Shown here: positions 13,593 to 44,114 of the stretch, piece by piece
How positions within the stretch are numbered: the first letter of the stretch is position 1
Layout: the number at the start of each line of letters is the position of its first letter
Origin: an uncultured Gammaproteobacteria bacterium
GTDB taxonomy: Bacteria > Patescibacteriota > Patescibacteriia > UBA11705 > DATKZF01
Assembly: GCA_964411255.1 (NCBI GenBank)
Contig: CAYPKD010000008.1
Span: forward strand, 1 to 59,172
Reading direction: 5' to 3'
Length of the DNA stretch: 59,172 nucleotides
Notes under the pieces: generated by a model
What the model was told of the DNA's origin: nothing
The model's database searches: none
Seen by the model: the letters and a program-made list of their open reading frames with translations, nothing else
Translations under genes and position numbers: made by a program

Positions 13593-13602
13593 AATATATT
13601 AA

Positions 13603-14115: not shown

Positions 14116-14163
14116 CCGTTGTGATCAGTTGATCTGTTTTTTCCTAATTAATAATTATATAAA

Positions 14164-15153: not shown

Positions 15154-15159
15154 ACTATA

Positions 15160-16635: not shown

Positions 16636-16640
16636 AAATA

Positions 16641-24214: not shown

Positions 24215-24580
24215 TTAAAATTTCTTCTTTCCCTTCAATGTCAGAATACTAGAGGCAAGAATATTTGCTATTTCAGTTACTTCTTTTAATAATTGTTCGG
24301 CCTTTTCTTGATTAGCTTTTTTAGCATCCCTTAATAATTCCAACCAAAACTTACTTTCATTTGCAGACTTCAAAGAATGATTAAAATAATTTGTAAAATC
24401 TCTTTTCGTACTTCCTGCTTGGGCTTCAATAAAATTTGCACCAATACTTGTTATGCTTCTTAATAATTGCCTACTAATCACTTGTACACCCAAATCTTTT
24501 TTATTCAGGACATCAATGAAATTGATACAATTAATTGCTAAACTATATGTTCTTTTTTTTATATCTTTTTTATTTTCCAT
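24215..24580 (-). CDS. Four-helix-bundle protein (23S rRNA IVS protein / Avd family)
   Basis: 121 aa. ANFIEAQAGSTKRDFTNYFNHSLKSANESKFWLELL is the family signature. Confidence 0.85.
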   Translation of the reverse strand: MENKKDIKKRTYSLAINCINFIDVLNKKDLGVQVISRQLLRSITSIGANFIEAQAGSTKRDFTNYFNHSLKSANESKFWLELLRDAKKANQEKAEQLLKEVTEIANILASSILTLKGKKKF

Positions 24581-26539: not shown

Positions 26540-28966
26540 TTACCAACCCATCATTTCATCTATTGTCTTTGAAGTTAAATCAGCTCCAGTAGGATATACA
26601 ATTGATGTTGGAACATTTTGAATAATAAAATCACTGTTAAACATGTTTGCATCAAATACACTTGAGCTAACATGCCTTTTTTCTCCATTATCAATATAAT
26701 AATTATTTGCATCTCCTGCATAACTTATCAATGCTCCGCTTGGATGAGAAAGTGTTGTGATACCTGTTCCTTTTACATAATTTGACCAAAATGCATCTGA
26801 AATATCCATAATCCTATCATTCCATAAATCTCCATAAAGCTGCTCAGCTAATTCTTGAGTTTCAATCCATCTGATCACTCCTCCTGGCTCAACTGCATAG
26901 ACTGGAGCTAAGGATTTAATTTTAACCAACCATGTACTTGGTCTCATAGTTACATTTTCCCCTAAAGGAATGGCAGCTAAATCAGCATCTGAGATGACTT
27001 TTATATGGTCAAAATCTCTAAACCAGCTAAAGAAAATTGTATCACTTGGAAATACATGCCTCTTTCCATCTGATCCTAAAATATAGACTGTTGACATGCT
27101 GCTACTTTTAATTAAATCTTCAACTTTCAAACTTACTGGAAAGCTTGGTTCATATGGTTCTTCTCCGGGTTCTTCTCCAGGTTCCTCGCCTGGCTCTTCT
27201 TCCGGTTCTTCAGGTGCTGCTGTTTGGACATAATCAATAGTGTCTGAATTAATACTAAATGATAAATTTCCAGTTGAGCTTTTAAATCTGGCATATACAG
27301 TTTTTTCTCCATACCCATCAGATAAGACCCAATTTTTTGAAGTATTATATTCTTCCCAGGTTGCGCCAATAAAGTCTGGGTCATTTGAAACGACCATATG
27401 CGTAGCATCTATTGCAAACAATGATAAAGTTACGTTTTGAGAAGTAGTCTCAGTTTCATTGTTGTTTATTTCTATTGATGTTTCTGAAGGATAGACAGCT
27501 GAACTTCCTCCTCCACCTCCGCCACCAACAGCGCCAGTCGTGTAGCTCCATTGACATGGAAGTGCGTCACCTAAAATATTGCCTGATCTGTCTGAAGCAG
27601 TATTAATTGATGCTGTATAAAGAGTAAGTGGATTATAATCATTGTGAGTCCATGTTCTCACTGATCGTCTGCTACTCCAACTTCCTGACCAACCGCCTGG
27701 ATTTGGACTACTTGATCTGTTTGCTGAAGCCATTGCCTCACTGAAAGTCACAACTAGGTCTGCAGATAGTCCGACTCCAGCAGCACCATTTGCCGGAGAA
27801 ACATTCATTATTACTGGATTAATATTATCTCTTAAAAATATTGCAGGAATCACTATCGGAACTGCATAAATATCCAATGGCGGTGTTACTGACTGAGTCA
27901 CAGTATCCACACCAACATCAGCTGCATTTACTCTTCTATTAAATTCAAAAGCTGCCCAGGAATTTCCAGCGATATGAGTAACATTTGATATGCTCGATAC
28001 ATTGCCTCCACTTATGTCATTATACGTAAAATCAGGAGGAGATAATGGAGTACTCCAAGCATTGCCATATACTGGTTCTGGAAATCCAGTCAATGGATCA
28101 ACAAAAACAATTTCAGCTAACTTTTGTCTCTCTGCTGTTTCGACAATTGTTGGTACAGGCGGGCCACCAATATCTGGAACCAATGAGGCACCACCAGCAA
28201 TACAAGAATTTCCCCATAAATCAACCACTGTAGGATTACAATCTAATATATCAATCCCCAATTCAGGAGGCGTAACCAATAAATTCATCATTGAAATAAT
28301 AAAATAATCGCCAGCAGTATGAGTTACACTAAACAATCCATTACCCTCTAAAGGAGGCAAATCTGTATGAAACAAATCAAGAACATTAACTGAACCGTCT
28401 GGGTTTGAACCAAAAACTGGAATAGAACCAATAGCTGGATTTACACTATCAAATTCTGTTAAAGCTATTGGTGTGCCTGCTACGGTTACACTTCCTGGGG
28501 ATGGAGCAATTGGGATATAAGTTCGAACTACTGGCCAGGCTCCGCCATTATCAACTAAACCGACCGGTACATTACTAGGCAGAGCACCGGCAATCGTATA
28601 AATTGATCCCATTTTTGCTTCAATTGTATCAGCAATATCACCCACAACTGCATTATTATTCATCGTTAATATTGCCCAATCGTTTCCTGGCGTATGATTA
28701 ATACTGGCAATACCACCCATACCGGCAGCATTATTATTGGTATAAACAAAATCACTTTTTTGTAAACCAATAGTTCTTGCACTATCTCCCCAAACATGAT
28801 TTGTAAATTTTACTAAAATCATATTTTTTATTGGTGCAGTGCTATCAAATAAAGCCATTGTAATGCCAGCTGTAAATGAAATTGCTTCTGCCGGCCTTGG
28901 CCCTGCAAAAAAAGATAAACTAAAAATAAACGAAACAATTAATAGACTAATAAAAAATTTTTTCAT
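26540..28966 (-). CDS. Secreted surface-layer-like paralogue P1 (SbsA-type Ig domain, Gly linker, beta-sandwich, (GEEP)n linker, shared C-terminal module)
   Basis: Signal peptide. DNINPVIMNVSPANGAAGVGLSADLVVTFSEAM (Big_5-like). GGGGGGGS. (PGEE)n. C-terminus VYILGSDGKRHVFPSDTIFFSWF...YAVEPGGVIRWI... Confidence 0.8.
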   Translation of the reverse strand: MKKFFISLLIVSFIFSLSFFAGPRPAEAISFTAGITMALFDSTAPIKNMILVKFTNHVWGDSARTIGLQKSDFVYTNNNAAGMGGIASINHTPGNDWAILTMNNNAVVGDIADTIEAKMGSIYTIAGALPSNVPVGLVDNGGAWPVVRTYIPIAPSPGSVTVAGTPIALTEFDSVNPAIGSIPVFGSNPDGSVNVLDLFHTDLPPLEGNGLFSVTHTAGDYFIISMMNLLVTPPELGIDILDCNPTVVDLWGNSCIAGGASLVPDIGGPPVPTIVETAERQKLAEIVFVDPLTGFPEPVYGNAWSTPLSPPDFTYNDISGGNVSSISNVTHIAGNSWAAFEFNRRVNAADVGVDTVTQSVTPPLDIYAVPIVIPAIFLRDNINPVIMNVSPANGAAGVGLSADLVVTFSEAMASANRSSSPNPGGWSGSWSSRRSVRTWTHNDYNPLTLYTASINTASDRSGNILGDALPCQWSYTTGAVGGGGGGGSSAVYPSETSIEINNNETETTSQNVTLSLFAIDATHMVVSNDPDFIGATWEEYNTSKNWVLSDGYGEKTVYARFKSSTGNLSFSINSDTIDYVQTAAPEEPEEEPGEEPGEEPGEEPYEPSFPVSLKVEDLIKSSSMSTVYILGSDGKRHVFPSDTIFFSWFRDFDHIKVISDADLAAIPLGENVTMRPSTWLVKIKSLAPVYAVEPGGVIRWIETQELAEQLYGDLWNDRIMDISDAFWSNYVKGTGITTLSHPSGALISYAGDANNYYIDNGEKRHVSSSVFDANMFNSDFIIQNVPTSIVYPTGADLTSKTIDEMMGW
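27156..27212 (-). repeat. 12-nt tandem repeats encoding the (PGEE)n linker in P1
   Basis: GGTTCTTCTCCG GGTTCTTCTCCA GGTTCCTCGCCT GGCTCTTCTTCC GGTTCTTCAGG on the plus strand. Confidence 0.7.
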
Positions 28967-29046
28967 AATTAAAGATTTGATTAATAAGCTAAAATTAGCG
29001 ATATCCTTCTCGCTTAATACTAAATATAAATTTCTTTGTTACTTGT

Positions 29047-29089
29047 ATTATACTAAATGATATAATTTTCAAATATTTATTTATCCACA
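29047..29089 (-). promoter_or_regulatory. P1 promoter region: TGTGGATAA, 28 nt, TATAAT
   Basis: On the minus strand, TGTGGATAA (29089-29081) lies 28 nt upstream of TATAAT (29052-29047). No good -35 hexamer. Confidence 0.5.
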
Positions 29090-29090
29090 A

Positions 29091-29116
29091 ATAAAAAAGA
29101 GGCCCATAACCTCTCT
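29091..29116 (-). terminator. Terminator after paralogue P2
   Basis: Stem AGAGG/CCTCT followed by a T-run on the minus strand. Confidence 0.5.
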
Positions 29117-29132
29117 CTTTTTTTTATAATTT

Positions 29133-31571
29133 TTACCAATCCATCATTTCATCTATTGTCTTTGAAGTTAAATCAGCTCCAGTAGGATATGTAATTGAAG
29201 TCGGTACATTTTGGATAATAAAGTCACTATTAAACATATTTGAGTCAAACACGCTTGAGCTTATCATTTGTTTTTCTCCATTATAAATATAATAATTATT
29301 ACCGTCGCCTTCATAACTGATCAATGCTCCGCTCGGATGGCTAGCCGTGGTAATACTTTCTCCCTTAATATAATTATTCCAAAATGCATCAGAAATATCT
29401 ACAGTTCTCTCATTCCAAATACCTCCGTATAATTGTTCTGCTAAACCTTGATTTGCTACCCACCTAATAACACCACCTGGCTCAACTGCATATACCTCCG
29501 CTAATGATTGAATCTTTACCAACCAAGTTCCTGGTCTCATTGTCACATTCGCGCCCAGCGGAATTGAGGCTAAAGTTGAATCAGATATCACTTGTACATC
29601 ATCAAAATCCCTAAACCAACTAAAATATACTGTATCAGTTGGAAAGACATGTCGCTTACCATCTGATCCTAATATATATACGGTTGACATGCTGCTATTT
29701 TTTACTAAATCGCCTACCATCAAACCTGCTGGGAAAGACGGTTCAGTAGGTTCTTCTCCGGGCTCTTCTCCGGGTTCCTCTCCTGGCTCATCAGGACCAG
29801 CTGTTTGGACATAATCAATGGTGTCTGAATTAATACTAAATGATAAATTTCCAGTTGAACTTTTAAATCTGGCATAAACAGTCTTTTCGCCATAACCATC
29901 AGTTAATGTCCACGCTTTTGAAGTATCATACTCTTCCCAAGTGGCTCCAATAAAGTCTGGGTCATTTGAAACGACCATATGCGTAGCATCAATTGCAAAT
30001 AATGATAAAGTTACGTTTTGAGAAGTAGTTTCAGCATCTCCACTATTTATTTCAATAGACGTTTCACTTGGATAAATGCCAGCACTACCACCTCCACCGC
30101 CTCCAGCACCGCCAGCTGTTGTAAAATTCCATAGATATGGCGAAGGATCACCCATTGTATTGGCTGCAGGTGAAAAATCAGTAATATTATTTAATGTAGC
30201 CAGATAAGGTGTACTTAGAGCAAAATCATTATGGGTATATGTTCGCACAGTATTATTTGAGCTCCATGAACCTGCCCACCCCCCTGGATTTGGTGCTGAA
30301 GGAGCTACAGCAATTGCACTGATAGATTCACTAAAATTGAAAATAATATTCTGGCTTATTGGAACATTAATGGCATTGTTAGCAGGGGTGGTACTCATTA
30401 CAACTGGATCTACATTATCAGCAATTGGTGTAGCTAAAGCCAAGAAATTGCCGAGAAAATCAATTAAAGGAAACGCTCCAGGCACTATCATATCAGCTCC
30501 TAAATCACCAGGAATGATCGGTAAGTCAGTTGTATATGTTCCCCAAGTATCTCCAGGTATATGAGTAACTGAAGTCATTGCAGTTGCTCCAGCGCCACCA
30601 TTGCCATCACCATAACCTATATCCCAGCCTATTAGAAGTGGGGATCCTGGAGGAAAAGGTCCACTAGTGCCAAATACAGCTTCTGGCACACCTCGAACAC
30701 CATCAAAAAATTCAAACTCTCCCATTGTGGCATTAGTAGTAGTTTCGGTTGAGAATAAAGTTGGTGGTGTAGCATCAACCTGAAGAGGAGCTCCAATTGG
30801 CAAACAAGGATTGCCCCATAAATCGGTAACTGCAACACAATCAATAATATCAGATCCTATCTCTGTTCCTACAAGTGGAATATTTAAGGTTAAAAATACT
30901 TTATAATCACCTGGAGTATGGTATGCATTTGCCAATCCATTTCCTTCAAGCGCAGGCACTGGGTTATCAATATATGATAAATCTGCACTGGCAATTGATC
31001 CATCAGGATTTGATCCATAAGCTGGTATAAATTGACCTGTATTAAAATTCATAAATTCTAACACACTTCTATTAAAACCTGGGCCGCCCGAAACTAATGC
31101 GCCTGGGATACCTGTTCCCGGATAAAAAATCTGTCCTATAGGTGCGCCAGAATTATCAGTTGGAGAAACTTGTGCGCCACCTGGCAATGCGCTGCCAATA
31201 GTATAAATTGACGCTTGCTTTGCTTCAATTGTATCAGCAAAATCTCCAGCAACCGCTCCGGCGTTCATGGTTAATATTGCCCAGTCATTTCCTGGTGTAT
31301 GATTAACACTGGAAATACCTCCCATACCTGCAGCATTATTATTGGTATAAATAAAATCACTTTTTTGTAAACCAGCTGTTCTGGCACTATCAGACCATAC
31401 ATGATTTAAAAATTTTACAAAAAGTAAATTACTGTTTGGCGCTGCACTGTCGAACATTGCATATACAATAGATGATGTATATGCATTTGCAGGGCTTACT
31501 GGCATAAATATAAAAGTAGATGCCAAAATAAAGATAAAAACAAATAAACTTAAAAATATTTTCTTTTCCAT
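29133..31571 (-). CDS. Secreted surface-layer-like paralogue P2
   Basis: Same architecture as P1. The N-terminal 130 aa and the C-terminal roughly 340 aa are highly similar to P1, and the centre is divergent. Confidence 0.8.
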   Translation of the reverse strand: MEKKIFLSLFVFIFILASTFIFMPVSPANAYTSSIVYAMFDSAAPNSNLLFVKFLNHVWSDSARTAGLQKSDFIYTNNNAAGMGGISSVNHTPGNDWAILTMNAGAVAGDFADTIEAKQASIYTIGSALPGGAQVSPTDNSGAPIGQIFYPGTGIPGALVSGGPGFNRSVLEFMNFNTGQFIPAYGSNPDGSIASADLSYIDNPVPALEGNGLANAYHTPGDYKVFLTLNIPLVGTEIGSDIIDCVAVTDLWGNPCLPIGAPLQVDATPPTLFSTETTTNATMGEFEFFDGVRGVPEAVFGTSGPFPPGSPLLIGWDIGYGDGNGGAGATAMTSVTHIPGDTWGTYTTDLPIIPGDLGADMIVPGAFPLIDFLGNFLALATPIADNVDPVVMSTTPANNAINVPISQNIIFNFSESISAIAVAPSAPNPGGWAGSWSSNNTVRTYTHNDFALSTPYLATLNNITDFSPAANTMGDPSPYLWNFTTAGGAGGGGGGSAGIYPSETSIEINSGDAETTSQNVTLSLFAIDATHMVVSNDPDFIGATWEEYDTSKAWTLTDGYGEKTVYARFKSSTGNLSFSINSDTIDYVQTAGPDEPGEEPGEEPGEEPTEPSFPAGLMVGDLVKNSSMSTVYILGSDGKRHVFPTDTVYFSWFRDFDDVQVISDSTLASIPLGANVTMRPGTWLVKIQSLAEVYAVEPGGVIRWVANQGLAEQLYGGIWNERTVDISDAFWNNYIKGESITTASHPSGALISYEGDGNNYYIYNGEKQMISSSVFDSNMFNSDFIIQNVPTSITYPTGADLTSKTIDEMMDW
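29749..29795 (-). repeat. 12-nt tandem repeats encoding the (PGEE)n linker in P2
   Basis: GGTTCTTCTCCG GGCTCTTCTCCG GGTTCCTCTCCT GGCTCATCAGG. Confidence 0.7.
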
Positions 31572-31683
31572 ATTGTTTAAAGTTTTATTAATAATTAAGT
31601 AAGATTATATTTAATTTATTAAGCTAAAATAAACGAATAATGTCGTTTTTCAATTGACAAAATAACATTTAACTTGTGTATTT

Positions 31684-31726
31684 ATTATACTAAAATACAA
31701 AATTTGCTGATATAGACTTATCCACA
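31684..31726 (-). promoter_or_regulatory. P2 promoter region: TGTGGATAA, 28 nt, TATAAT
   Basis: Minus-strand TGTGGATAA (31726-31718), exactly 28 nt, then TATAAT (31689-31684). Confidence 0.5.
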
Positions 31727-31773
31727 TAAAAAAAAGCCCAAAAGGACCTTTTTCTATATAAACTAATTTTCTA

Positions 31774-34700
31774 TTACAAACCCATCATTTCAACAATTGA
31801 CATTGAAGGCAAGTCTGCTCCAGGAGGATATACGATTGAATTTGATACATTTTGAATTACAAAGTCGCTGTTAAACATATTTGCATCAAATACGCTTGAG
31901 CTTATCAGTCTTGTTAAACCATTATCAATGTAAATATTATTTCCATCTCCCTCATAACTTATCAATGCTCCGCTTGGATGGCTAACAGTTGTAATGCCGT
32001 CTCCTTTGATATAATTTGGCCAAAATGCATCTGATACATCTACTATTATCTGATTCCAAATACTTCCGTAAAGCTGTTCTGCTATTTCCTCATTAGCTAT
32101 CCATCGAATAACTCCGCCTGGTTCAACAGCGTATACTGGAGCTAAAGATTGAATCTTTACCAACCATGTTCCTGGTCTCATTGTTACATTTGCACCTAAT
32201 GGTATGGCTGCTAAGTCTGCGTCTGAAATAACTTGTACTGCTGAAAAATCCTTAAACCAACTGAAATATACTTTGTCTGTTGGGAATACATGTCTTTTGC
32301 CATCTGATCCTAATATATAAACGGCTGAAGAATTGCTGCCCTTTATCAAATCACCTACTTTTAATTCTGAAGGATAAACTGGCTCTTCGCCTGGTTCTGG
32401 TTCTTCTCCAGGCTCTTCAGGTTCACTTGCTGTTTCAACATAATCAATGCTGTCTTGGGCAATAGTCTTTGCCGTATTACCTGAAGTACTCTTAAAATTT
32501 GCATATACTGTTTTTGTTTCATAACCACTGGTCAATGTCCATGTCTTTGAATTAGCATATGGTTCCCAAACTGCGCCCACAAAATTAGGATCGTTTGATA
32601 AGGTCATTTCATCTGCATCAGCTGCTACAATTGACAATGTTACTACTTGAGATTCTGTTTCAGCAACATCATTATTAATAATGACAGAAACATTTGACGG
32701 ATATACAGCACTACCTCCACCACCGCCTCCTCCAGGAGAAGAAGTTGTAAAGCTCCATGGGTTAGCTACAGGACCAGGGGCTAATCCCAATGCATTTACA
32801 TCCTGTCCGGCCGTAATCTGTTCAGTATATGACGTTCCGTAATCAAATAAATTATGTGAATAAGTAGCAACTGTATTTCCTGCACTCCAAGACACTGCCC
32901 AGCCACCTGGATCAGGACCAGCTGTTTGAGCTTGAGTTACTGTTCCTGTACTCATTGCTTCACTGAAAGTAACTATTAAATTTTGATTAACAAATACGCT
33001 TGGGGCTCCGCTTACTGGATTTGTTGACAAAATAATTGGAGCTGCGCCATCTGTTTCTGCCACAGTGCCTGAGCCAATTGTCACCATTGGATTGCCTGCT
33101 AAATCAGTAATCAGCCCTGTGGTTACAGTTGTAATATCAGGGATAGCTCCTGTATCCTGTCCTCCTAAAGGAGTTGGGAAATAAAATGTAGCATACTGAT
33201 CATTAGCAACATTGGCAGTTGGATGATTTGTATTAAAGGATGGTATTCCTGCTTCTCCTGTTAAGGCTAATCCTGCCCCGCCCCCATTATAAGAAGCATC
33301 AATAACTGGCTCATTAAATGTTACGCGATAAGTATCAATTATTCCCGGACTTGGAGGGCCAACACCGTCTGTATCTTGGGTATAGGCTGCAGTAATTGTT
33401 GGATTTTGCGTATCGACATCAAAGAAAGCAACCCATGTTAGTACTTCAACATTACCAGCCACGTCTGAAGCAGCTGAACTATCTAAACTTACACCTAAAA
33501 CATCTTCATTAGCATCAGTGATATTGAAAGTCTCTGTCCAAATTGTATTACCGCCGCCCCACGCTCCGTCAGAATTTGATGTAATGACACCAGCAGTGGC
33601 TCCAAAATTACTGGTCGGAGTAGAAGCTGGGTCCATTGCTTCATTATATGTAAATGTTACTTCCTGAGTTAAATCCCCATCATATATTGGATTAGTGCCA
33701 GCGCCTGGAACTGAAAATGGTTGAGTTACATCAACAACTATTGGTAATGCTGCTGATGCTACGCTAGTATTTCCAGCAGCATCAGTAGCTGTTGCTGTTA
33801 TATTATGAGCTGTACCAGTCTGACCGGCAGTAGTCATACCGCCAACAGTTACATTATAATTTCCTCCAGTTGCTGTTCCAGTTCCAATATTGCCATCAAC
33901 ATTACTGATTATAGTTATAGTTGACCCTGCTTCACCAGTTCCGTCAAACTGAGGAGTGGCATCGTTAGTTATATCATCAATGCTAGATGCGCCAGTATCA
34001 CTTGCTGCATTTAAATCTGGAACTGAAGGTGCTGCTGGTGGTGTATTATCAGTATTTAACTGACCTACTAACTGATAAGAGGTAAAACCTGCTAAATCAT
34101 CAGCTGTAACACATAAATAATCAGTATGGTCACCAGTAATAAAGAAATCAGTGCTATTAGTAAAAGGATTACCATAGGTATCAGTACCATCGCATGTGCT
34201 ATCAGCGCTATATCCATATTCTAAACTACCAGCATCTAGATTAGCATCAGTAACGGTCACGTTAATTGTATCTGTTTGTACTGGGCCAGCATCTGTACCA
34301 TTATTTATTGTAAAACCAGGAGCTGATGTATCAATCGTAATAGTCAGCGCTGGAGATGCCGGACTGCTGTTAGTAGCTGCATCAGTGGCCACAACGGTCA
34401 TGTTATGAGTTCCTTCAGATAATACAGAAACTGAGTAATTATAGATTCCACCACCAGCAGTCGTGCTACCAACTGCTCCGTCAATACTGCTGGTAAAAGC
34501 GACTGTAGATCCTGCTTCAGCTGTACCATCCAGTTGAGGAGTAGTATCACTGGTAATATCATCAACACTTGATGGTCCTGTATCACTTCCAGCATTTAGG
34601 TCTGGTGCTGGCGGCTGAGCTGGCGGTGTATTATCTGTATTTAACTGTCCTACCAACTGGTATGCGAAATTAAATGCTTGATCATATGCAACAACACATA

Positions 34701-35547
34701 AATAATCAGTATGATCACCTGTAATATTAAAATTTGTACTATTGGTAAATGGATTACCATAAGTATCCAAACCATCGCATGTGCTGTCAGGACTATAGCC
34801 GTAATTCAAACTTGAAGCGACTAAATTTGTATCGGTTACAGTTATATTTATAGTGTCTGTCTGCACAGGGCCAGCAGCTGTACCATCATTTATTGTAAAA
34901 CCAGGGGGGGTGCCGTCAATTGTTGCCGTTGCAATACCTGAGCCTGCTGCAGGACCAGTATCCACAGTATCTGAAATATTACCTGCTGAAACAGCAGCAG
35001 TAACTGTATTTGTGTCAGTAGCTCCTGCATTCATTTCATAAGCCACATAATATCTCTCTGTAGTACCTAAAGCGCAATTTGGATTAATATCACCAGAAGC
35101 AGCAGAACCATCAATAAAATCTTTATCAAAAAACACTTGCGGAGTGGCGTCAAATGCATTTGTTGCTCCACCAGCAGTACCTGAATATCCAATTAAGGTA
35201 TCTGAACTAGGACTAAATAACGCATTTCCATTTCCTCCGCAGCCTAAACCGTCATCATCAAGATATAATAAAACTCTATCAACATCAGCTTCTGGTGCTG
35301 TGCCTCCAGCGTCAATAATAATACTCTCTAAACTTCTATTATCAGCATCTTGTAAGTCAATACTCAACATAGCCTGAACTCCGCCAGGAGCAACCACTCC
35401 ACCAATAATAGCTACAGTCGCAGTATCAAAATTAGCTGCGCTGGCTACATTAACTGAAAAATTAAAAGCAAATGCGAATACCATTACAAAAATCATTAAA
35501 CTGATTAATGCAATTGGCATAATTTTGTTAATTTGTTTTTTTGTCAT
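31774..35547 (-). CDS. Secreted surface-layer-like paralogue P3 (1257 aa, with tandemly duplicated Ig-like block)
   Basis: Signal peptide, Thr/Gly/Ala/Asp-rich Ig-like repeats, Big_5-like segment, GGGGGGS, the same beta-sandwich, a PEEPGEEPEPGEEP linker and the same C-terminal module as P1 and P2. Confidence 0.8.
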   Translation of the reverse strand: MTKKQINKIMPIALISLMIFVMVFAFAFNFSVNVASAANFDTATVAIIGGVVAPGGVQAMLSIDLQDADNRSLESIIIDAGGTAPEADVDRVLLYLDDDGLGCGGNGNALFSPSSDTLIGYSGTAGGATNAFDATPQVFFDKDFIDGSAASGDINPNCALGTTERYYVAYEMNAGATDTNTVTAAVSAGNISDTVDTGPAAGSGIATATIDGTPPGFTINDGTAAGPVQTDTINITVTDTNLVASSLNYGYSPDSTCDGLDTYGNPFTNSTNFNITGDHTDYLCVVAYDQAFNFAYQLVGQLNTDNTPPAQPPAPDLNAGSDTGPSSVDDITSDTTPQLDGTAEAGSTVAFTSSIDGAVGSTTAGGGIYNYSVSVLSEGTHNMTVVATDAATNSSPASPALTITIDTSAPGFTINNGTDAGPVQTDTINVTVTDANLDAGSLEYGYSADSTCDGTDTYGNPFTNSTDFFITGDHTDYLCVTADDLAGFTSYQLVGQLNTDNTPPAAPSVPDLNAASDTGASSIDDITNDATPQFDGTGEAGSTITIISNVDGNIGTGTATGGNYNVTVGGMTTAGQTGTAHNITATATDAAGNTSVASAALPIVVDVTQPFSVPGAGTNPIYDGDLTQEVTFTYNEAMDPASTPTSNFGATAGVITSNSDGAWGGGNTIWTETFNITDANEDVLGVSLDSSAASDVAGNVEVLTWVAFFDVDTQNPTITAAYTQDTDGVGPPSPGIIDTYRVTFNEPVIDASYNGGGAGLALTGEAGIPSFNTNHPTANVANDQYATFYFPTPLGGQDTGAIPDITTVTTGLITDLAGNPMVTIGSGTVAETDGAAPIILSTNPVSGAPSVFVNQNLIVTFSEAMSTGTVTQAQTAGPDPGGWAVSWSAGNTVATYSHNLFDYGTSYTEQITAGQDVNALGLAPGPVANPWSFTTSSPGGGGGGGSAVYPSNVSVIINNDVAETESQVVTLSIVAADADEMTLSNDPNFVGAVWEPYANSKTWTLTSGYETKTVYANFKSTSGNTAKTIAQDSIDYVETASEPEEPGEEPEPGEEPVYPSELKVGDLIKGSNSSAVYILGSDGKRHVFPTDKVYFSWFKDFSAVQVISDADLAAIPLGANVTMRPGTWLVKIQSLAPVYAVEPGGVIRWIANEEIAEQLYGSIWNQIIVDVSDAFWPNYIKGDGITTVSHPSGALISYEGDGNNIYIDNGLTRLISSSVFDANMFNSDFVIQNVSNSIVYPPGADLPSMSIVEMMGL
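32381..32422 (-). repeat. Repeats encoding the (PGEE)n linker in P3
   Basis: GGCTCTTCGCCT GGTTCTGGTTCTTCTCCA GGCTCTTCAGG. Confidence 0.6.
33740..34925 (-). repeat. Tandem duplication (two units of about 590 bp / 195 aa) inside P3
   Basis: The protein block PGFTIN(D/N)GT.AGPVQTDTIN(I/V)TVTD.NL...DSTCDG.DTYGNPFTNST.F.ITGDHTDYLCV...QLVGQLNTDNTPPA...DTG.SS.DDIT.D.TPQ.DGT.EAGST occurs twice. Boundaries are approximate. Confidence 0.7.
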
Positions 35548-35631
35548 AAGAATAATAAAAATTAGTTATTAAAATAACTTAGGCAATTTTGCCTTTTATA
35601 AATATATAAAAATATTAGTTTTCTATCTTTA

Positions 35632-35671
35632 ATTATACAACATTTTATCGATATTAGTAAAGTTATCCACA
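35632..35671 (-). promoter_or_regulatory. P3 promoter region: TGTGGATAA, 25 nt, TATAAT
   Basis: Minus-strand TGTGGATAA (35671-35663), 25 nt, then TATAAT (35637-35632). Confidence 0.45.
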
Positions 35672-35675
35672 TATC

Positions 35676-35702
35676 AAAAAAGAGGCTATTTTTTTGCCTC
35701 TT
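35676..35702 (-). terminator. Terminator after P4
   Basis: Stem AAGAGGC/GCCTCTT with a 9-nt loop and a T-run on the minus strand. Confidence 0.6.
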
Positions 35703-35716
35703 TTTATCTATAATTT

Positions 35717-37399
35717 TTATTGATTTGACTGCTCTTGAAATTCTTCCAAATCCTCAAATTCCAAAGCCAACATTTCCAATAGGTTTTGAGCATTGGCAAA
35801 AGACTCACCTTCATAATAATCAGTATAAAATGAATCTGAAAGATCATCCACTTCATCTGCCCAATCAGTACCATACAGCATACTTGCATCTTCTTCTGTT
35901 TCCAGCCAATGAAGCTCTCCGCCTTCAGCTGCTAAAAATACCTTTGGTACTGACTGTAGCTTAAATAAACTTCCTGGTTTATATTGTACATTACTACCTA
36001 ATGGATATGATGCTAATTCTTCTGCTGATATTGTTTCTACACTGCTAAAATCATCAAACCATGAAAAGAAAATATTTTCATTTGGAAATACATGCCTAAC
36101 ATCACTTGAATCCAAGAAATAAACTGTAGAAAAATCAGGGGATTTTACCAATCGTCCATCTAAAGTTTCATATGTTTCAAATTCAACAAAACCAAAAACT
36201 GGAAAATCTATACCGAAAAACGGCATTTTTAGAAATTCTCCATCTGCTTTGGCAAAAAACAATGACAAACCAACCAGGTTTGAATTAACCACTACGTGCA
36301 CTTCACCCATAGAATTTGTTTCTTGGCTGTCTATGTATAATATTTCATCATATGAACCCTTAGTTGAAATCAATTCAATATGCTTGCCACTGACAGGATT
36401 TTCATTTTCATCAAGAACAGTCACTGTCACTTCCATGTCTTCTCCCACTGTACCAATAATTCGGTCTGGTATAATAGTTGAATTTTCATATGGCAAAGTG
36501 TCAGAAGGTGTGATATTAACTGTAATTGGCTCTTGCTGCGACCAAGTTCCTCTTGAATCTTTTGATTTCGTTTTAATTATATATTCACCTGGCGCAATAT
36601 TTGACCAGTCATATTTCCAAGTTAAAAAATATGGTTCAATGCCTGTCACGTCCATCCAGGTATCAGATTCACCCTGCTGGGTAATGCTAATCTGAACAAT
36701 TTCAACATTTGCTCCGCCTTGGTCTTTGGCCATTCCTTCAATCTGATAAGAATTGGCTGAATAAGAATCGCCATCAAATAAATTTGTAATATTTACCTTT
36801 GGGCCAAGCGGATCCTGATTAGCGCGTGTACTCAGCTGGTCATTTCCGATGACAACATTCTCAGTCGGGCCATTAACACCCAGTGCTGTAAAAATACCCA
36901 AATCTCCTGGATCATACATGCCATCTTCATTAAAATCTGTAAGCATTGGGATTCTGAATTTTAATGATTTGTTTGAAGCAATGTTTTTCTTTGTAGTGAC
37001 AGTGACAAACATGCGCAATCCTTCAGCTGAAATAAATTCATAAATATAATCAAAAAGCCAGCCGTTTATTTCATTTTTCCAGTCGCCAGCCAGTATTAAA
37101 TTATCTATGCCCATTCCTTGAAATCCTTCTGGACCGTCATCTGACCATAATTGTACTTGATCAATTTCACTTAGACTTGCGGTTCCAATATTTTGGAGTG
37201 TTAATGTTTCCAAAACATCTCCACCCATTACATCACATGGGAGAGTAAAATCCATTACTAAAAAATCAAAATTTTCTGAATAAACATAAGCTGTACCAAT
37301 CGGATGAACTTCAACCATTGATGAAGTAAAAGCCCTGGCTTCAAATCCTAAAAAGATAAAAGCCAAGCAGAGAAATAATACTAAAAATTTTTTAAACAT
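35717..37399 (-). CDS. Secreted paralogue P4 (Ig-like/Big_1-like domains plus shared C-terminal module)
   Basis: Signal peptide. C-terminus TVYFLDSSDVRHVFPNENIFFSWFDDFSSVETISAEELASYPLGSNV...LHWLETEEDASMLYG matches the module of P1-P3. Confidence 0.75.
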   Translation of the reverse strand: MFKKFLVLFLCLAFIFLGFEARAFTSSMVEVHPIGTAYVYSENFDFLVMDFTLPCDVMGGDVLETLTLQNIGTASLSEIDQVQLWSDDGPEGFQGMGIDNLILAGDWKNEINGWLFDYIYEFISAEGLRMFVTVTTKKNIASNKSLKFRIPMLTDFNEDGMYDPGDLGIFTALGVNGPTENVVIGNDQLSTRANQDPLGPKVNITNLFDGDSYSANSYQIEGMAKDQGGANVEIVQISITQQGESDTWMDVTGIEPYFLTWKYDWSNIAPGEYIIKTKSKDSRGTWSQQEPITVNITPSDTLPYENSTIIPDRIIGTVGEDMEVTVTVLDENENPVSGKHIELISTKGSYDEILYIDSQETNSMGEVHVVVNSNLVGLSLFFAKADGEFLKMPFFGIDFPVFGFVEFETYETLDGRLVKSPDFSTVYFLDSSDVRHVFPNENIFFSWFDDFSSVETISAEELASYPLGSNVQYKPGSLFKLQSVPKVFLAAEGGELHWLETEEDASMLYGTDWADEVDDLSDSFYTDYYEGESFANAQNLLEMLALEFEDLEEFQEQSNQ

Positions 37400-37402
37400 A
37401 AA

Positions 37403-38050
37403 TTATTTTTTATTTTTTAATATTTCAATTTCTTCTTTTATTCCCTCATTATTTGGCTCAAACTGCAAAGCGATTTCATAAAATTCAATTGCCTTACTGA
37501 TATTTCCCATTTCTCTATAAGCCAATGCCATCATTTTTGGCAATTCTGAATCATTTGGCATAAACTGCCTGCCATATTCAGCGATTGGTATGAATTCTGG
37601 CAATTTTTCCCTTTTAACATCAATATAAATAGTTAATAAATTTCGATACGCGCTGATCTGCTTCACATTATTTTCTATAATTTTTTTATTTGCTTGTTCA
37701 GCTTTATCAAAATTCTGGGTTCTTACATACAAAGAAGCCAGATTCATATAATATAAATTGTCATTTCTAACTTCAGTACAGCGTATATAATATTCTATTG
37801 CCCGCTCTAAATCTCCCTCATTTTCATAAGCCTCAGCAATAAAAAATAAAACATCTTTGTTATGTAAATCCTGCTCTAATTCTGTTTTTAAAATTTTAAT
37901 CTCATCTGTGTCATTTTGTTCATACACAGCAAAAGATTTTATATATGACTTTTGCTCACCTACTTTTACCCACCAGACTATACTTGCAAAACCTAAAATA
38001 ATTAGGATTATTAGTAAAATAAATAGGATTTTTTTTACTTTTTCATTCAT
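37403..38050 (-). CDS. Membrane-anchored TPR-repeat protein
   Basis: N-terminal TM followed by repeated A..YE..GD...AI.YY-type 34-aa units. There is a 3-nt gap to P4. Confidence 0.7.
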   Translation of the reverse strand: MNEKVKKILFILLIILIILGFASIVWWVKVGEQKSYIKSFAVYEQNDTDEIKILKTELEQDLHNKDVLFFIAEAYENEGDLERAIEYYIRCTEVRNDNLYYMNLASLYVRTQNFDKAEQANKKIIENNVKQISAYRNLLTIYIDVKREKLPEFIPIAEYGRQFMPNDSELPKMMALAYREMGNISKAIEFYEIALQFEPNNEGIKEEIEILKNKK

Positions 38051-38147
38051 AATATACTTTTTTATGTAATAAAATTTTACCAGAAATATCGAAAAAAATC
38101 AAATATAATGGAAAAAAGGGGAAACTTTATTTTCAGTGTTTTGACGT

Positions 38148-38177
38148 GGTAAGTCACTTTGGCCAAAGTGACTTACC
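38148..38177. other. Perfect 13-bp hairpin
   Basis: GGTAAGTCACTTT-GGCC-AAAGTGACTTACC. Confidence 0.7.
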
Positions 38178-38194
38178 ATTCGGATATTTTTAGG

Positions 38195-38367
38195 TGGAAT
38201 CGTTGTTGAATAATAGGTACGATGAGCGAGACATGTACTCGGGGAATCCCTAGCCTACGCCAAGGCTTCGGCTCGCAGGCAGATTCCCGCTTGGCAGTCT
38301 AGTTTCTCCTGCTCAAAAATGCTGAGGGAAAACTCTGTTTCCCCGCCCATATTCGTTGCAGGAAAAC
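38195..38367. ncRNA. Candidate structured RNA of unknown family; strand unresolved
   Basis: A roughly 170-nt stretch that is visibly far more G+C-rich than its flanks. Nested stems include GGGAATC/GATTCCC (38242-48 with 38283-89), a GGC-UUCG-GCU tetraloop hairpin, GGGAAA/TTTCCC and GTTTCC/GGAAAC. No credible ORF. Confidence 0.3.
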
Positions 38368-38393
38368 AAAACCCCGCCAAATGGCGGGGTTTT
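38368..38393 (-). terminator. Strong terminator after P5
   Basis: AAAACCCCGCC-AAAT-GGCGGGGTTTT, an 11-bp stem. Confidence 0.8.
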
Positions 38394-38417
38394 GACTATC
38401 TAATCTGTTAAAACAAA

Positions 38418-41400
38418 TTAGTATGTGAAGGTATTACCATTAACTGGTGTTTCCTTGGTTAATGAAGAATCAACCCAAGGAGGACCTGCTATAGGAAGTA
38501 ATTCAGTATCAGACCAGTCAATACCTCGTTGTGTTACAGAAGTAACAGCAAGGTCACCTGTCAAACTGGCAGTAAAGCTCTGTGGATTTACAGAACCTTG
38601 AGTATCAGTAATTAATTTGACACTCTTAGTTGTACCAGAAGAGACAGATAGTGTTGCATTCCAGCCAGTAGTACCTACGACATCAGCATATCCACCCATA
38701 TAAGCTCCTAATGGAAGAGCTGACCAGTATACTACTGAATTATCAAGAGTTCTCAATTCAGTATTATTAACACCACCACCAGCAATTGTACCACCAAAAT
38801 AGAATTCCATATTCATGACAGTAATGTCATCACCAGTCGCTGTTAAGTCAAGTCTTAATGCTTCTTGGTCTGGAGCGCCAGTTGCACTGCCACCAGGTGA
38901 ATTTACATTCTTGGTAACAGTTAGTAAACCGTCATATTGGTAGAAGTCATTTCCACCATATACTAGGCCAGGAACAACTGGGTTACCCCAAGTATCGTCA
39001 ATAGTATCAACAGTCTGCAAAGCAGCTCCTGAATCCATACCGACAGCTTCCATCAAGTATGTATCATTACCGCCAGCAGCCCAGTTACTCCAGTTAGCAC
39101 CTGTCTGAGTAGTTGCATCAGCAATACCCATAACAAAGTCATCACCTGAAGTTAACTGAGTCTTATCCTTTAATCCTACTTCACCAGTAAGAACCATTGA
39201 TCCGTCCTGAGGTACGACTAATGTACCAGATGTCAGGTTAAGAACACCTAAACAGGTTACAGGATCTAATGGAACTGAAGCTCCAAGCTGTGTAGCACCG
39301 TCCCATAGAGTTACATCACTCACATTAGCAGCACAGTTAACTGCACCTGCTGCAGTATTAGCCATTTGGCCAGCAAATACTGAAATCTTGGTAACGTCTA
39401 CATCTTCATATCGAGCTTCAAGCTTATATTTAAACACAGGATTTCCGCTTGATCCAGCAACTAATTGCGCAGCTACTGGAGTATCAGCATCCAATGTTAC
39501 ACGAAGCTCACCATTAGCTTGATATGTCTGAACAGGACTGATTGTTCCTGGTAAAGTTAAAGTACCAGCTACACCACTGTCATCACCGACAGCAGTAACT
39601 GCTGTGACATTGGCGATAAAGGTATTGGTAGCTGTTGGATTGGTATTGTCAACCAATAATGCAAGATTTTCAATATCAGTCATTGAGGCAATAAAGCCGT
39701 CATCAATGTTAAAGACAACAGTTTCAGGAGCAGTAGCAGAATACTGTTCTGTTTCACCGATTTGAACTAGGCCATCCCATAACTCAAAATTATTTAAGTT
39801 AGCCCATGTTTCAGTACCCCAGTTAGTAATGGTAATAGATGTTACTTTTATGTCTTCGCCACTACCAGTAGCATCTAATTCAATATTAGCCATTTCATGG
39901 TTTTGTGAACCAGCAATTACAGTACCGGCAATTGGGTTTGCACCCATGTCAGCATTTAATGCTGGGCCTTGGGCAGTCATAACATTACAGTTAATAACTG
40001 CGTTTGGTGTTGGGGTAATAGTCTTATTTGAAGTCAAACCTTTAACATTTGTTAAAGCAGTAGCTGGGTTCATTGAGACCTGATACTGCCTTCCAGCAGT
40101 GCCATTTGCTAATTTACCAGTTACAAAGACTTCATCAGTACCGCTCATCAATTCAAAGCTTGATGAGAAAGTGCCAGTAAATGTTGGCCATGCACCTGTC
40201 AAGTTAACAGGACCGCCCAATACTGTGCCAGTATCATCTAAGATTCTTAGCAAAGTGATATCATTTACTGTTTCAGCACCGCCAATACCTGTAACAGTTA
40301 CAGCCATTTGTCCAAATCTGACATCTTCACCCTTGATTAAGAAATCAAAGCTGCAAAGTTCTACATCAGATGAACCAACTGGAATATTTCCAGTTGCTGG
40401 AGCATTTGAACCTTTACTGACTGTTACAGTACCCTGGTTGATAGTGGTCAAAGGACCAACACCAGCCCAAGTACCTGCAGTCAAAGGTACGCCATAACCA
40501 TATGTAGCACCAGTAGCCTGGATAGTCCACGCAGAACCATCCCAGATATCAAAGCCAACAGTTCGTCCTGAACCGCCTACGACATCACTTCTACCGCCTA
40601 ATTCTACATAATTACCCTGAGTGACCTGTAATCCAGGTGTAGCCCAGACTAATTTGTCATCAGTGGTCCAATCAGCTGTACCATATGACATGCCAGCAGT
40701 AGTATTATATAATTCTAAGTCATCTAAATCAGATGTGATGAAACTTGAAGCAGTTCCTCTCATAAGAGTAACGTAGTCGATGTTAACATCTTCTACTGCA
40801 TTTGCCCAAAGTTTCATGTGTACAAAGATATGATCAGTAGCGTCAATATCTACAGTTGGAGTACCTGATGGTTGTAAAGTACCATTGTCAACTGTAAGAC
40901 CACCTACATTAATCGCAGTAAGGGTCATAGTGTTTCCATTTATTGGGAAAGCACCAGATACAGATGAAGCATTACTAACAATGTCAGATGCAGATTCAAT
41001 TCCAAATACTACTTCACCAGTACCGCCACCAAAACCAGGACCGTCAAAGGCTAATTCTAATGGCTGTGTAGCGCCATCAGACACAGTCCAACCGCCTGAT
41101 ACGTTAAATACTGCTTTATGATCAGCATTCAATGTTTGGCTAGTACCAACCATTGTGCCGTTTTCATATAATTTAGCAGCAGCAATTAAGGCATCTGTAC
41201 TTAAACCGCTTCGTAAGAAGCTAAGTTTATCGATTTTTACATCACCACCTGTAGCAGTAAAATTAACTTTTACAGCAGGGATATCAATAGCTGAATCAGG
41301 TACAGACTGGGCTGCTGGAGTATCAGCTGCCAAAGCAACTGTTAAAGCTCCGCCTGTTCCAGGACCTGGAACAACAGCACCGCCGCCCTGAGAATCATCT

Positions 41401-42107
41401 ACTAAATCAGCTTCGCCACCAGTAATTTCAGCACCATCACTGTATGAATCTAATACAGCTTGTGTAGTTACGTTAACATATTCCCAATAGAATCTGTTTG
41501 CGTAAAATGCTGATTCTGAGGCAATTCTTCTCTTCATGCCATCCCAGATTAAATATACATCTGGGCTTCCAGAAGCTTGTATTAAAAAGCCGTCTGGATA
41601 CCAAGTACCATCTAATTCAACACCTGTATCAGTATAATTTGGCCAAAAAGCGTCTGAAACATCAATCACTCTAGAGCCCCAATCTGCGCCAAACATAGTA
41701 ACAGCAGATGCTTCACTGTTCACCCAATATAATTTACCATCTCTACCAACTGCATAAACTTTTGGAATAGACTGGATCTTTATCAGTTTGGTGCCATAAC
41801 GAGTAACAACATTGCCTGCTAACGGAATAGCTGCAAGCTCTGCGTCTGTTATAACAATCACGCCTGAAAAGTCATACTGCCAAGTGAAATAATACTTGTC
41901 TTGAGGATATACATATCTATTTCCATCGCCTGCATTGAAATAGACAGCGTCAAAGCTACCCATGATAGTATCACCACCGGCAAGTGTTGCAGCACTTGCT
42001 ACTGGAACTAGAGTAGCGATGCCCATTGACCAAACAATAGTCGCAAGGACAACCCCAAAAGTAAAAACTTTTTTTAGGTTATTCATAATAATTTTAATCT
42101 CCTTCAC
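38418..42107 (-). CDS. Major S-layer-like protein P5 (1229 aa; shared module at the N-terminus, then repeated beta-sandwich-like units)
   Basis: SD AAGGAG. Signal peptide ...VPVASAAT. N-terminus AVYFNAGDGNRYVYPQDKYYFTWQYDFSGVIVITDAELAAIPLAGNV...LYWVNSEASAVTMFG. The remainder is Thr/Gly/Ala/Val-rich. Confidence 0.8.
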   Translation of the reverse strand: MKEIKIIMNNLKKVFTFGVVLATIVWSMGIATLVPVASAATLAGGDTIMGSFDAVYFNAGDGNRYVYPQDKYYFTWQYDFSGVIVITDAELAAIPLAGNVVTRYGTKLIKIQSIPKVYAVGRDGKLYWVNSEASAVTMFGADWGSRVIDVSDAFWPNYTDTGVELDGTWYPDGFLIQASGSPDVYLIWDGMKRRIASESAFYANRFYWEYVNVTTQAVLDSYSDGAEITGGEADLVDDSQGGGAVVPGPGTGGALTVALAADTPAAQSVPDSAIDIPAVKVNFTATGGDVKIDKLSFLRSGLSTDALIAAAKLYENGTMVGTSQTLNADHKAVFNVSGGWTVSDGATQPLELAFDGPGFGGGTGEVVFGIESASDIVSNASSVSGAFPINGNTMTLTAINVGGLTVDNGTLQPSGTPTVDIDATDHIFVHMKLWANAVEDVNIDYVTLMRGTASSFITSDLDDLELYNTTAGMSYGTADWTTDDKLVWATPGLQVTQGNYVELGGRSDVVGGSGRTVGFDIWDGSAWTIQATGATYGYGVPLTAGTWAGVGPLTTINQGTVTVSKGSNAPATGNIPVGSSDVELCSFDFLIKGEDVRFGQMAVTVTGIGGAETVNDITLLRILDDTGTVLGGPVNLTGAWPTFTGTFSSSFELMSGTDEVFVTGKLANGTAGRQYQVSMNPATALTNVKGLTSNKTITPTPNAVINCNVMTAQGPALNADMGANPIAGTVIAGSQNHEMANIELDATGSGEDIKVTSITITNWGTETWANLNNFELWDGLVQIGETEQYSATAPETVVFNIDDGFIASMTDIENLALLVDNTNPTATNTFIANVTAVTAVGDDSGVAGTLTLPGTISPVQTYQANGELRVTLDADTPVAAQLVAGSSGNPVFKYKLEARYEDVDVTKISVFAGQMANTAAGAVNCAANVSDVTLWDGATQLGASVPLDPVTCLGVLNLTSGTLVVPQDGSMVLTGEVGLKDKTQLTSGDDFVMGIADATTQTGANWSNWAAGGNDTYLMEAVGMDSGAALQTVDTIDDTWGNPVVPGLVYGGNDFYQYDGLLTVTKNVNSPGGSATGAPDQEALRLDLTATGDDITVMNMEFYFGGTIAGGGVNNTELRTLDNSVVYWSALPLGAYMGGYADVVGTTGWNATLSVSSGTTKSVKLITDTQGSVNPQSFTASLTGDLAVTSVTQRGIDWSDTELLPIAGPPWVDSSLTKETPVNGNTFTY

Positions 42108-42286
42108 CTCTAGGTATATTTTTACATCTATAGTTTGTAAAAATATATTCGAGGCTAATAATATCTTTAATTATGTCAGGACCTCTTGCTTATGCAAATC
42201 GACCTTTCTGGGTCTGACAACCTAAAGAGCTTGATTAATAATAAATATATATCTTTAGGATTTTTATAAATAATTAATAATAAATT

Positions 42287-43567: not shown

Positions 43568-44114
43568 GGAAAATGTCTTTTAATGTTTTTAAAGCTCGAT
43601 GTATAAGTACCCGAATATTGCTTTTTGTCTTATTTAATATCTCAGCAATTTCTGAAATATTTAAGTCTTCAATATATCTTAATATTATTACCTCGCGATA
43701 TTCTTCCTTTAATAATTTTAATTTGCTTTCGATTTGCTCCAAATCTATTTTTATATCAAGCTCATCAATTATGCTTGTTCTGTCTTTTACAATTTCCTCA
43801 AACTGTTCAGAGCTTGAGACAACAGAATCTTTTGATTTTTGCCTGTAATAATCCACTATGCAATTTCTAGCCACTCGATAAATTAATGCATTAAAATTTT
43901 CAATCTTCTTTTCACTTTTTTGTAAATAGTGCCATGTCTTTAAAAAAACATCTGAAGTTATATCCTGCGCATTCTCATCAGTGGCGACCTTAAATCTGAC
44001 AAATCTGAAAATCTGGTCAATATACATATCATAAAGTTTACCAAATGCCTCTGGGTCTTTTTGATTCTTTGCCTGATAAAGTAAATATTTGATTTTTAAA
44101 ATTTTACTTTTCAT
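43560..44114 (-). CDS. Sigma-70 family (ECF-size) sigma factor
   Basis: 184 aa. Region 2 DITSDVFLKTWHYL...LIYRVARN. Region 4 NISEIAEILNKTKSNIRVLIHRALKTL. Confidence 0.85.
   Translation of the reverse strand: MKSKILKIKYLLYQAKNQKDPEAFGKLYDMYIDQIFRFVRFKVATDENAQDITSDVFLKTWHYLQKSEKKIENFNALIYRVARNCIVDYYRQKSKDSVVSSSEQFEEIVKDRTSIIDELDIKIDLEQIESKLKLLKEEYREVIILRYIEDLNISEIAEILNKTKSNIRVLIHRALKTLKDIFHD

Follow-up and report, generated by a model that had tools for sequence, protein, structure and literature searches.

Among the closest described counterparts of the genes considered here are predicted surface-layer (S-layer) proteins of the Patescibacteria, or Candidate Phyla Radiation (CPR); the genes lie at positions 26540-42107 of a 59,172-nucleotide stretch of a contig from an uncultured bacterium (CAYPKD010000008.1, assembly GCA_964411255.1; this whole stretch is called the window), where five large secreted proteins, P1 to P5, share a movable module that probably anchors them to the cell wall. 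A 2024 preprint (10.1101/2024.05.28.596244), covered here in part, predicts with AlphaFold-multimer S-layer proteins of Patescibacteria of 1131-1274 amino acids, with a signal peptide and six immunoglobulin (Ig)-like domains, which have many homologues across the classes of Patescibacteria and are predicted to form a hexameric p6 lattice (A0A1G2EN61, A0A1F5NRV7, A0A0G1WWP5, A0A1F4NSF7 and GMX59286.1); a shorter form of 643-727 residues has three domains. Kuroda et al. (2024) reported that the top-expressed secreted proteins of three Paceibacteria have peptidoglycan-binding domains and Ig-like folds, the versions with peptidoglycan-binding domains ranking in the top five secreted proteins by expression (PMC10936435), and according to the preprint these are homologues of its S-layer protein. 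In the light of these two studies the statement in a preliminary description of the locus, that CPR S-layer proteins are essentially uncharacterised, is partly outdated, and the S-layer reading of P5 is not new, since the preprint had predicted such proteins in Patescibacteria; the anchor module itself is not described in the covered portions of the preprint. P5 is like the preprint's protein in its signal peptide, its size (1222 residues) and its all-β body of six to seven units, and proteins of ~600-730 residues with an N-terminal module parallel the three-domain form. Homologues of P5 that bear PG_binding_1 show the architecture of the proteins of Kuroda et al. (PMC10936435). By this analogy P5 would add a member to a family of S-layer proteins that had been predicted before, would presumably be homologous to the preprint's sequences, and may be highly expressed.

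Several anchoring domains outside the CPR invite comparison. SLH triplets (PF00395), like the module, are three tandem repeats of ~55-60 residues at one terminus of S-layer and accessory proteins, which they tether non-covalently to the wall; they differ in that SLH has a helical fold, where the repeats of the module are modelled with four strands and two helices, and in that there is no sequence match between the two. The CWB2 triple motif (PF04122) of Clostridioides difficile SlpA and 28 cell-wall-protein paralogues serves one wall polymer from either terminus, and is again like the module in having three tandem repeats common to an S-layer protein and accessory proteins; its fold and lineage differ. 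PG_binding_1 (PF01471), a helical bundle, takes the module's position in homologous proteins of ~1150-1200 residues, but it is unrelated in sequence and is a single ~60-residue domain as against the module's triple repeat. The EccB repeats R1-R4 of type VII secretion (PDB 3x3n, 4kk7, 5cyu, 7np7) resemble those of the module in being extracytoplasmic tandem units of ~55 residues with four strands and two helices. Unlike EccB, the module has no N-terminal transmembrane helix and no central core domain, and its repeats are arranged otherwise in space (TM-score 0.25); the proteins that carry it differ further in their cleavable signal peptides and their other bodies. The EccB repeats, a four-stranded sheet with two helices, have been reported to resemble the wall-binding subunit PlyCB (PMC4769845), which binds wall polyrhamnose (10.1101/2021.03.19.436156); PlyCB, from the streptococcal phage lysin PlyC, is unlike the module in being a single domain that forms octameric rings. 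By profile, then, the module is not SLH, PG_binding_1 or EccB; it would work like the first two and, in the predicted structure, shares a fold with the third.

All five minus-strand open reading frames (ORFs) were found in the ORF listing of the window at the coordinates of the preliminary description. The region is best explained as a cluster of genes for the cell surface in a bacterium of the Patescibacteria (CPR). The five genes and their modules, made up of repeats A, B and C, are as follows.

26540..28966, minus strand: P1, secreted, 808 amino acids, Big_5 and module at the C-terminus (ORF, Pfam, BLASTP)
26543..27133, minus strand: P1 module (A, B, C), C-terminal, P1 residues 612-808
29133..31571, minus strand: P2, secreted paralogue of P1, 812 amino acids, Big_5 and C-terminal module (ORF, Pfam, BLASTP)
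29136..29726, minus strand: P2 module (A, B, C), C-terminal, P2 residues 616-812
31774..35547, minus strand: P3, secreted, 1257 amino acids, Big_13, Big_6, Big_5, Pro/Glu linker and C-terminal module (ORF, Pfam, BLASTP)
31777..32367, minus strand: P3 module (A, B, C), C-terminal, P3 residues 1061-1257, query for the structure model
35717..37399, minus strand: P4, secreted Ig-like protein (Big_1/Invasin_D3, Y_Y_Y) with repeats A and B, then an acidic tail (ORF, Pfam, BLASTP)
35792..36169, minus strand: P4 module (repeats A and B only), P4 residues 411-536
38418..42086, minus strand: P5, probable S-layer protein, 1222 amino acids (start codon, Shine-Dalgarno sequence, family, model)
41412..41990, minus strand: P5 module (A, B, C), right after the signal peptide, residues 40-232 in the numbering of the preliminary description

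Pairwise BLASTP bore out the claim that these five large secreted proteins share a movable module (E 1e-23 to 1e-37). P5 is 40-45% identical to P1, P2 and P3 over 186-202 residues (E 7e-35 to 7e-37), the C-termini of P1-P3 aligning to residues 40-238 of P5, and P4 is 39-47% identical to the others over 116-126 residues (E 1e-23 to 1e-30). The five had also been called paralogues. The module is indeed homologous in all of them, but whole-length paralogy is confined to P1-P3: P1 and P2 are 59% identical over 820 residues, P3 is 46-51% identical to P1 or P2 over 600-710 residues, and P4 and P5 have just the module in common with the other proteins. When a six-frame translation of the window was searched with a profile of the module, only these five ORFs matched. 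The nucleotide identity among P1-P3, only 70-82%, gives no hint that gene conversion has occurred between them recently. Inspection showed a Pro/Glu-rich linker, EEPGEEPGEEP, ahead of the module in P1-P3 and a Gly-rich linker C-terminal of it in P5. The Ig-like segments reported for P1-P3, which the preliminary description called “SbsA-type”, were identified by Pfam as Big_5.

The strongest argument for the module as a wall anchor is a domain swap at the N-terminus of P5. Thirteen members of the P5 family are without the module, and in nine of these the alignment to P5 begins at P5 residue ~229-259, at or just past the module, which is residue ~157-250 of the homologue. PG_binding_1 was found above the Pfam cut-off in P0209 (residues 90-153), P0215 (94-160) and P0219 (84-150) and just under it in P0214 and P0220, with a precomputed match in P0224; it was seen only in P5 homologues without the module. 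Three SLH domains sit exactly at the position of the module in P0222 (120 bits), and P0225 has a precomputed SLH match. P0221, with one SLH barely over the cut-off (21.1 against 20.8 bits), aligns to P5 only from residue 724 and is not one of the nine. Known anchors are thus found ahead of a homologous body, so that in position the module corresponds to two classical domains of wall binding; on these alignments it appears interchangeable with them among the homologues of P5. Furthermore, the replacement of the module by SLH lends additional support to an S-layer role for the P5 body.

The target of such a domain could alternatively lie on another cell. CPR bacteria are episymbionts, host attachment by peptidoglycan-binding domains was proposed by Kuroda et al. 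(PMC10936435), and P1-P4 have adhesin-like Ig domains; the module might then be an adhesin for the peptidoglycan or polysaccharide of a host surface, and not an anchor to the cell's own wall. This is considered decidedly unlikely. SLH, which stands in for the module in some homologues, classically anchors proteins to the wall of the cell that makes them, and the module is the sole candidate retention device of these proteins, in which no C-terminal transmembrane helix, lipobox or LPXTG was seen on inspection. In the lattice model of the preprint (10.1101/2024.05.28.596244, covered portions) it is the C-terminal domain that forms the outward tip, and the N-terminus, where P5 has its module, therefore faces the cell.

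The preliminary description had seen a module followed by a second half-repeat. The shared segment is real, but it consists of three homologous tandem repeats of ~60 residues, A, B and C, as judged by hhalign (probability 91% for A-B, 96% for A-C and 97% for B-C; E 1e-6 to 2e-10), P4 having only A and B. A search for a described domain gave no match to the module or to single repeats in Pfam (2025), NCBIfam (2026) or PHROGs, even at E<=10. The SLH profile (PF00395) matched neither the module nor single repeats at E<=10, the PG_binding_1 (PF01471) and CWB2 (PF04122) profiles did not match the module, and the EccB profile (PF05108) did not match the whole module; the EccB model was the most frequent sub-significant match of single repeats in Pfam (2 of 31, best E 0.049). 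No known enzymatic domain with catalytic residues was matched. A profile search over all PDB sequences returned nothing meaningful: a trivial 12-residue match to designed β-propellers and non-significant matches to EAP/MAP were rejected. Conservation in the module falls chiefly on Gly, Lys, Arg, Asp and aromatic residues.

A relationship emerges at the level of predicted structure. The AlphaFold2 model of the P3 module, built from a 12-sequence alignment, has a mean predicted local distance difference test (pLDDT) of 91.1 and a predicted TM-score (pTM) of 0.83, and each repeat in it runs strand-strand-strand-helix-strand-helix by DSSP. When the model was compared with the PDB by Foldseek, the top 11 matches were all EccB1, EccB3 or EccB5 of mycobacterial type VII secretion. 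The best, to EccB1 (E 1.8e-4, probability 0.99), was the sole match at E<=0.001; the next family came at E 0.28. EccB is the only family of solved structure with a significant fold match to the modelled module, and the model shares the EccB repeat fold of a four-stranded sheet and two helices in tandem units of ~55 residues. PlyCB (4F87) was not among the top 50 PDB matches, and the link to it runs only via EccB1 R1. Among predicted viral structures the best matches were small uncharacterised actinophage proteins, headed by a protein of Rhodococcus phage Weasels2 (E 3.5e-5, TM 0.76); below these, with weak and non-significant scores, came amidases and lysozymes of phages (E 0.25-2.6) and a CHAP protein. 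No account of a three-repeat module, or of EccB-like or PlyCB-like naming for one, was found in the literature, the preprint being covered in part, and as far as was found the anchor module, with its three-repeat layout and EccB-like fold, is an undescribed domain family.

Alternatively, the module might be a protein-protein docking domain, as in cohesin-dockerin pairs or as EccB would be in its secretion complex, directed to the lattice or to another envelope protein, so that P1-P4 would be hung on P5 and not on the wall. EccB belongs to a membrane complex of several proteins (7np7, 7nps, 6sgy), the EccB1 repeats pack through hydrophobic helices (PMC4769845), and some module proteins contain cohesin or dockerin domains. 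Docking of this kind is nevertheless thought unlikely, as P5 itself has the module and as the domains swapped in for it, PG_binding_1 and SLH, bind wall polymers and are not protein-docking. Since the fold resembles a core component of the type VII secretion system (T7SS), and the window has genes resembling a type IV secretion system (T4SS) 7-15 kb downstream, one might also envisage that the module acts as an enzyme or in secretion, either in an ATPase or secretion machine, as claimed for EccB1, or as a sorting signal for export. Such a role is highly improbable for a module that lacks both a transmembrane segment and the core domain of EccB and is unmatched by the EccB Pfam model, that occurs at either terminus, in up to seven copies and interchangeably with binding domains, and whose conserved residues form no recognisable catalytic motif. 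The T7SS families EccC, EccD and WXG100 were not matched among the 29 of ~43 window ORFs (>=120 residues) that were scanned.

The module is widely distributed. In an exhaustive HMMER search of 1.84 billion representatives, 6,581 protein clusters reached E<=1e-3, of which 2,854 reached E<=1e-30; a word-indexed homology search, which gave just 7 relatives, badly understates the family by comparison. Among genomes that represent species, essentially every match falls in Patescibacteria (Uhrbacteria, Buchananbacteria, Falkowbacteria, Parcubacteria). Among the best 148 of the 6,581 representatives the module lies directly after the signal peptide in 76, at the extreme C-terminus in 70 and internally in 2, the internal type including P0076 with seven copies in one protein. 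C-terminal modules are joined to a subtilase with Big_1, a bacterial-surface Ig-like protein with dockerin, cohesin with CarboxypepD_reg, Big_5 and Invasin_D3, and one N-terminal-module protein carries DUF3048. Surface retention, as in SLH, CWB2, LysM and GW, is typically recognised by one module that flexible linkers join to many unrelated extracellular bodies, and the partners of the present module therefore give it the same signature. The envelope-anchoring, SLH-like role first proposed for it is thus favoured by the swap, the varied passengers, the placement at either terminus and the predicted EccB-like fold. Two or more adjacent module genes occur in 21 of 82 loci. Tandem pairs of small N-terminal-module proteins (~270-330 residues) recur in Uhrbacteria and similar genomes (L038, L039, L043, L053, L064 and L071).

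P5 was confirmed to carry its module directly after the signal peptide. Its start, however, was corrected from GTG 42107 (1229 residues) to ATG 42086 (1222 residues), because the GTG lies inside the Shine-Dalgarno sequence GGTGAAGGAG and both gene callers and homologues begin at MNNLKK. The strong Shine-Dalgarno sequence (GAAGGAG) and the terminator previously noted are both present, the gene appearing to end its own transcript at the latter:

38367..38394, minus strand: intrinsic terminator-like hairpin, 24 nt past the P5 stop, 12-bp stem with 8 GC pairs, T-run

The spacer between P5 and the next gene, which encodes a TPR protein (38051-38366, minus strand; 367 nt), is GC-rich for the genome; it holds a perfect hairpin with a 13-bp stem, GGTAAGTCACTTTGGCCAAAGTGACTTACC, at ~38147-38176, which has no Rfam match.

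The protein consists of the signal peptide, the A-B-C module, the Gly-rich linker and ~6.5 tandem β-sandwich units of ~150 residues. It is acidic (isoelectric point 4.05), has 4 Cys and is rich in Gly, Thr, Ala and Val, in agreement with the composition first described. The body (residues 241-1229 in the earlier numbering) is homologous in 53 of the 148 module representatives, and a direct search with it found at least 69 proteins, nearly all of 1150-1350 residues, annotated as hypothetical and from Patescibacteria. An AlphaFold2 model of the body is all-β (pLDDT 82), and self-comparison of the family profile gave 6-7 tandem units of ~150 residues (offsets 149, 306, 462, 613 and 807 residues). 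This conserved family of tandem β-sandwiches of ~1200 residues supports the reading of P5 as the chief structural protein in an S-layer-like system. The signal peptides of the family contain a conserved motif, [TS]xxW[STA]x[GM] (TIVWSMG in P5, residues 1-32, 41991-42086), which was found in 38 of 56 homologues with the module, in 1 of 13 without it and in 1 of 72 proteins with a C-terminal module; by analogy with the YSIRK motif, it may be the mark of signal peptides of a specialised kind.

Three features lie upstream of P5.

42199..42207, minus strand: 9-mer AAAGGTCGA, 121 nt before the P5 ATG
42287..43567, minus strand: DUF5667 single-pass membrane protein (Pfam DUF5667), its start overlapping the sigma gene by 8 nt
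43560..44114, minus strand: extracytoplasmic function (ECF)-type sigma-70 factor, upstream of P5 (Sigma70_r2/r4 domains)

The position of the DUF5667 protein suggests that it is an anti-sigma factor. An ECF sigma-70 gene, a DUF5667 gene or, usually, both directly precede an N-terminal-module gene at seven independent Patescibacteria loci (L008, L011, L012, L020, L022, L024 and L062), and BLASTP relates five of these to the P5 body. The arrangement resembles a conserved trio of sigma factor, anti-sigma factor and S-layer gene; it is missing at the PG_binding_1-type (L088) and SLH-type (L086) homologues. The 9-mer, with at most one mismatch, stands upstream of the P5-like gene at eight of eight loci, 61-474 nt before the ATG, with the consensus (A/C)AA(G/C)GT(C/T)GA. 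Its only other exact copy in the window is at 10379-10387, and it is not enriched across the window as a whole. No -35 and -10 elements could be defined around it. AAAGGTCGA may serve the adjacent ECF sigma factor as a promoter or may be an element of the 5' untranslated region.

The module was also found in predicted viral sequences, which is counted in favour of the anchor reading. A scan of viral sequences with a first set of patterns gave no loci and with a second set gave three; rows 2-8 of the second query were artificial A + B concatenations, used only to derive the search patterns. On each of the three predicted viral contigs (IMG/VR; L090, L091 and L092) a gene for a secreted protein contains repeats A and B. 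In L091 (UViG_3300014208_000414, 3357-4813) the module gene overlaps by 4 nt a gene for a membrane-anchored lysozyme-like protein, with a transmembrane segment, in a layout that recalls PlyCA/PlyCB.

Taken together, the module is probably a non-covalent wall anchor of three EccB-repeat-like domains, N-terminal on the probable S-layer protein P5 and C-terminal on P1-P4. We infer wall binding, the nature of the ligand, lattice formation, high expression and control by the sigma factor from sequences and predicted structures. P5, with its Sec signal peptide, its three EccB-repeat-like domains and a Gly-rich linker ahead of the lattice body, would be the S-layer or main surface-lattice protein, about six β-sandwich domains building the lattice and the module holding its base on the wall. 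The module would probably recognise peptidoglycan or a wall-linked polysaccharide through its conserved aromatic and basic residues. P1-P4 would be accessory surface proteins with Ig-like, adhesin-type bodies; because they have the same module at their C-termini, behind flexible Pro/Glu or Gly linkers, they may be displayed on the same wall ligand. The upstream ECF sigma and DUF5667 genes probably regulate P5.

Several observations weigh against this interpretation. The EccB repeats, to which the fold of the module is matched, have no established function, and global TM-scores to EccB are low (0.25), so that the likeness lies in the individual repeats, not in the way they are arranged. The fold search with the P5 body found just generic multi-Ig proteins (PrgB Ig-like domains, integrins, α2-macroglobulins), matches which neither support nor oppose an S-layer role for the modelled body. 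P5 is likened to the S-layer protein of the preprint (10.1101/2024.05.28.596244, covered portions) by architecture and not by sequence. Kuroda et al. see the peptidoglycan-binding domains of their proteins as possible devices for host attachment and not as anchors to the cell's own wall (PMC10936435). Finally, the adjacency to a viral lysin in L091 is a single weak case, the SLT_3 match of the lysozyme-like gene (23.5 bits) being under the 27-bit cut-off.

Further genes adjoin the array on its downstream side or within it.

37403..38050, minus strand: TPR membrane protein, 3 nt upstream of P4 (ORF, Pfam)
25853-26413, minus strand: second sigma-70 gene, downstream of P1, kept after the P1-like gene in L007 (ORF and domain search)
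24885-25838, minus strand: membrane-protein gene, downstream of P1, kept after the P1-like gene in L007 (ORF listing)

The TPR gene and P4 are probably co-transcribed, as first proposed, to judge from the 3-nt gap between them. In the closest genome (L007) P4-like, P3-like and P1-like genes are kept, followed by the second pair of sigma and membrane-protein genes. Between the surface-protein array and an 875-residue protein with two lamin-tail domains (LTD; 20668-23295, minus strand), a large probable surface protein free of the module, lie a gene of the 23S_rRNA_IVP (four-helix-bundle) family (24215-24580, minus strand) and an unannotated gene of 193 codons. The T4SS-like or conjugation-like cluster (10964-19148, minus strand) encodes a P-loop ATPase of the TraG/VirB4 type, a member of the PrgI family and large proteins of 491 and 835 residues that lack annotation. 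The window itself is part of a metagenomic contig of 214 kb. A GH1 enzyme and a GT4 glycosyltransferase are also encoded in the window, and an Rfam scan of it found three tRNAs and nothing else. A Wzm/Wzt-type ABC polysaccharide exporter and a sulfotransferase lie ~11.5 kb from P5 (53640-56528, plus strand), and a Wzm/Wzt cluster with glycosyltransferases adjoins the SLH-type homologue of P5 too (L086, 17786-19784); such clusters could make the wall polymer that serves as the ligand of the anchor.

A wider proposal is put forward tentatively, as possible rather than probable. The triple EccB-like repeat would be the main lineage-specific wall-targeting device in a large part of the CPR, and all proteins with it (at least 6,500 clusters, S-layer proteins, adhesins and proteases among them) would be surface proteins anchored on the wall; EccB, the actinophage proteins and PlyCB would belong with it to an ancient family that binds wall glycans; and in these lineages the S-layer gene would be under the control of a dedicated ECF sigma factor and of the DUF5667 protein as anti-sigma factor, via the conserved upstream element. 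The CPR, or Patescibacteria, account for much of bacterial diversity, but their envelope has been little understood, and most of the large proteins that they secrete carry the annotation hypothetical. If the anchoring reading is true, a module of ~125-195 residues would let the surface proteome be read from sequence in thousands of genomes of uncultured bacteria and, in tagged form, would be a probe for the wall ligand and a reagent for affinity or labelling with which CPR cells could be enriched. It would also suggest wall binding for the EccB repeats of type VII secretion, and it would explain how the predicted S-layer is tethered in those lineages that do without PG_binding_1.

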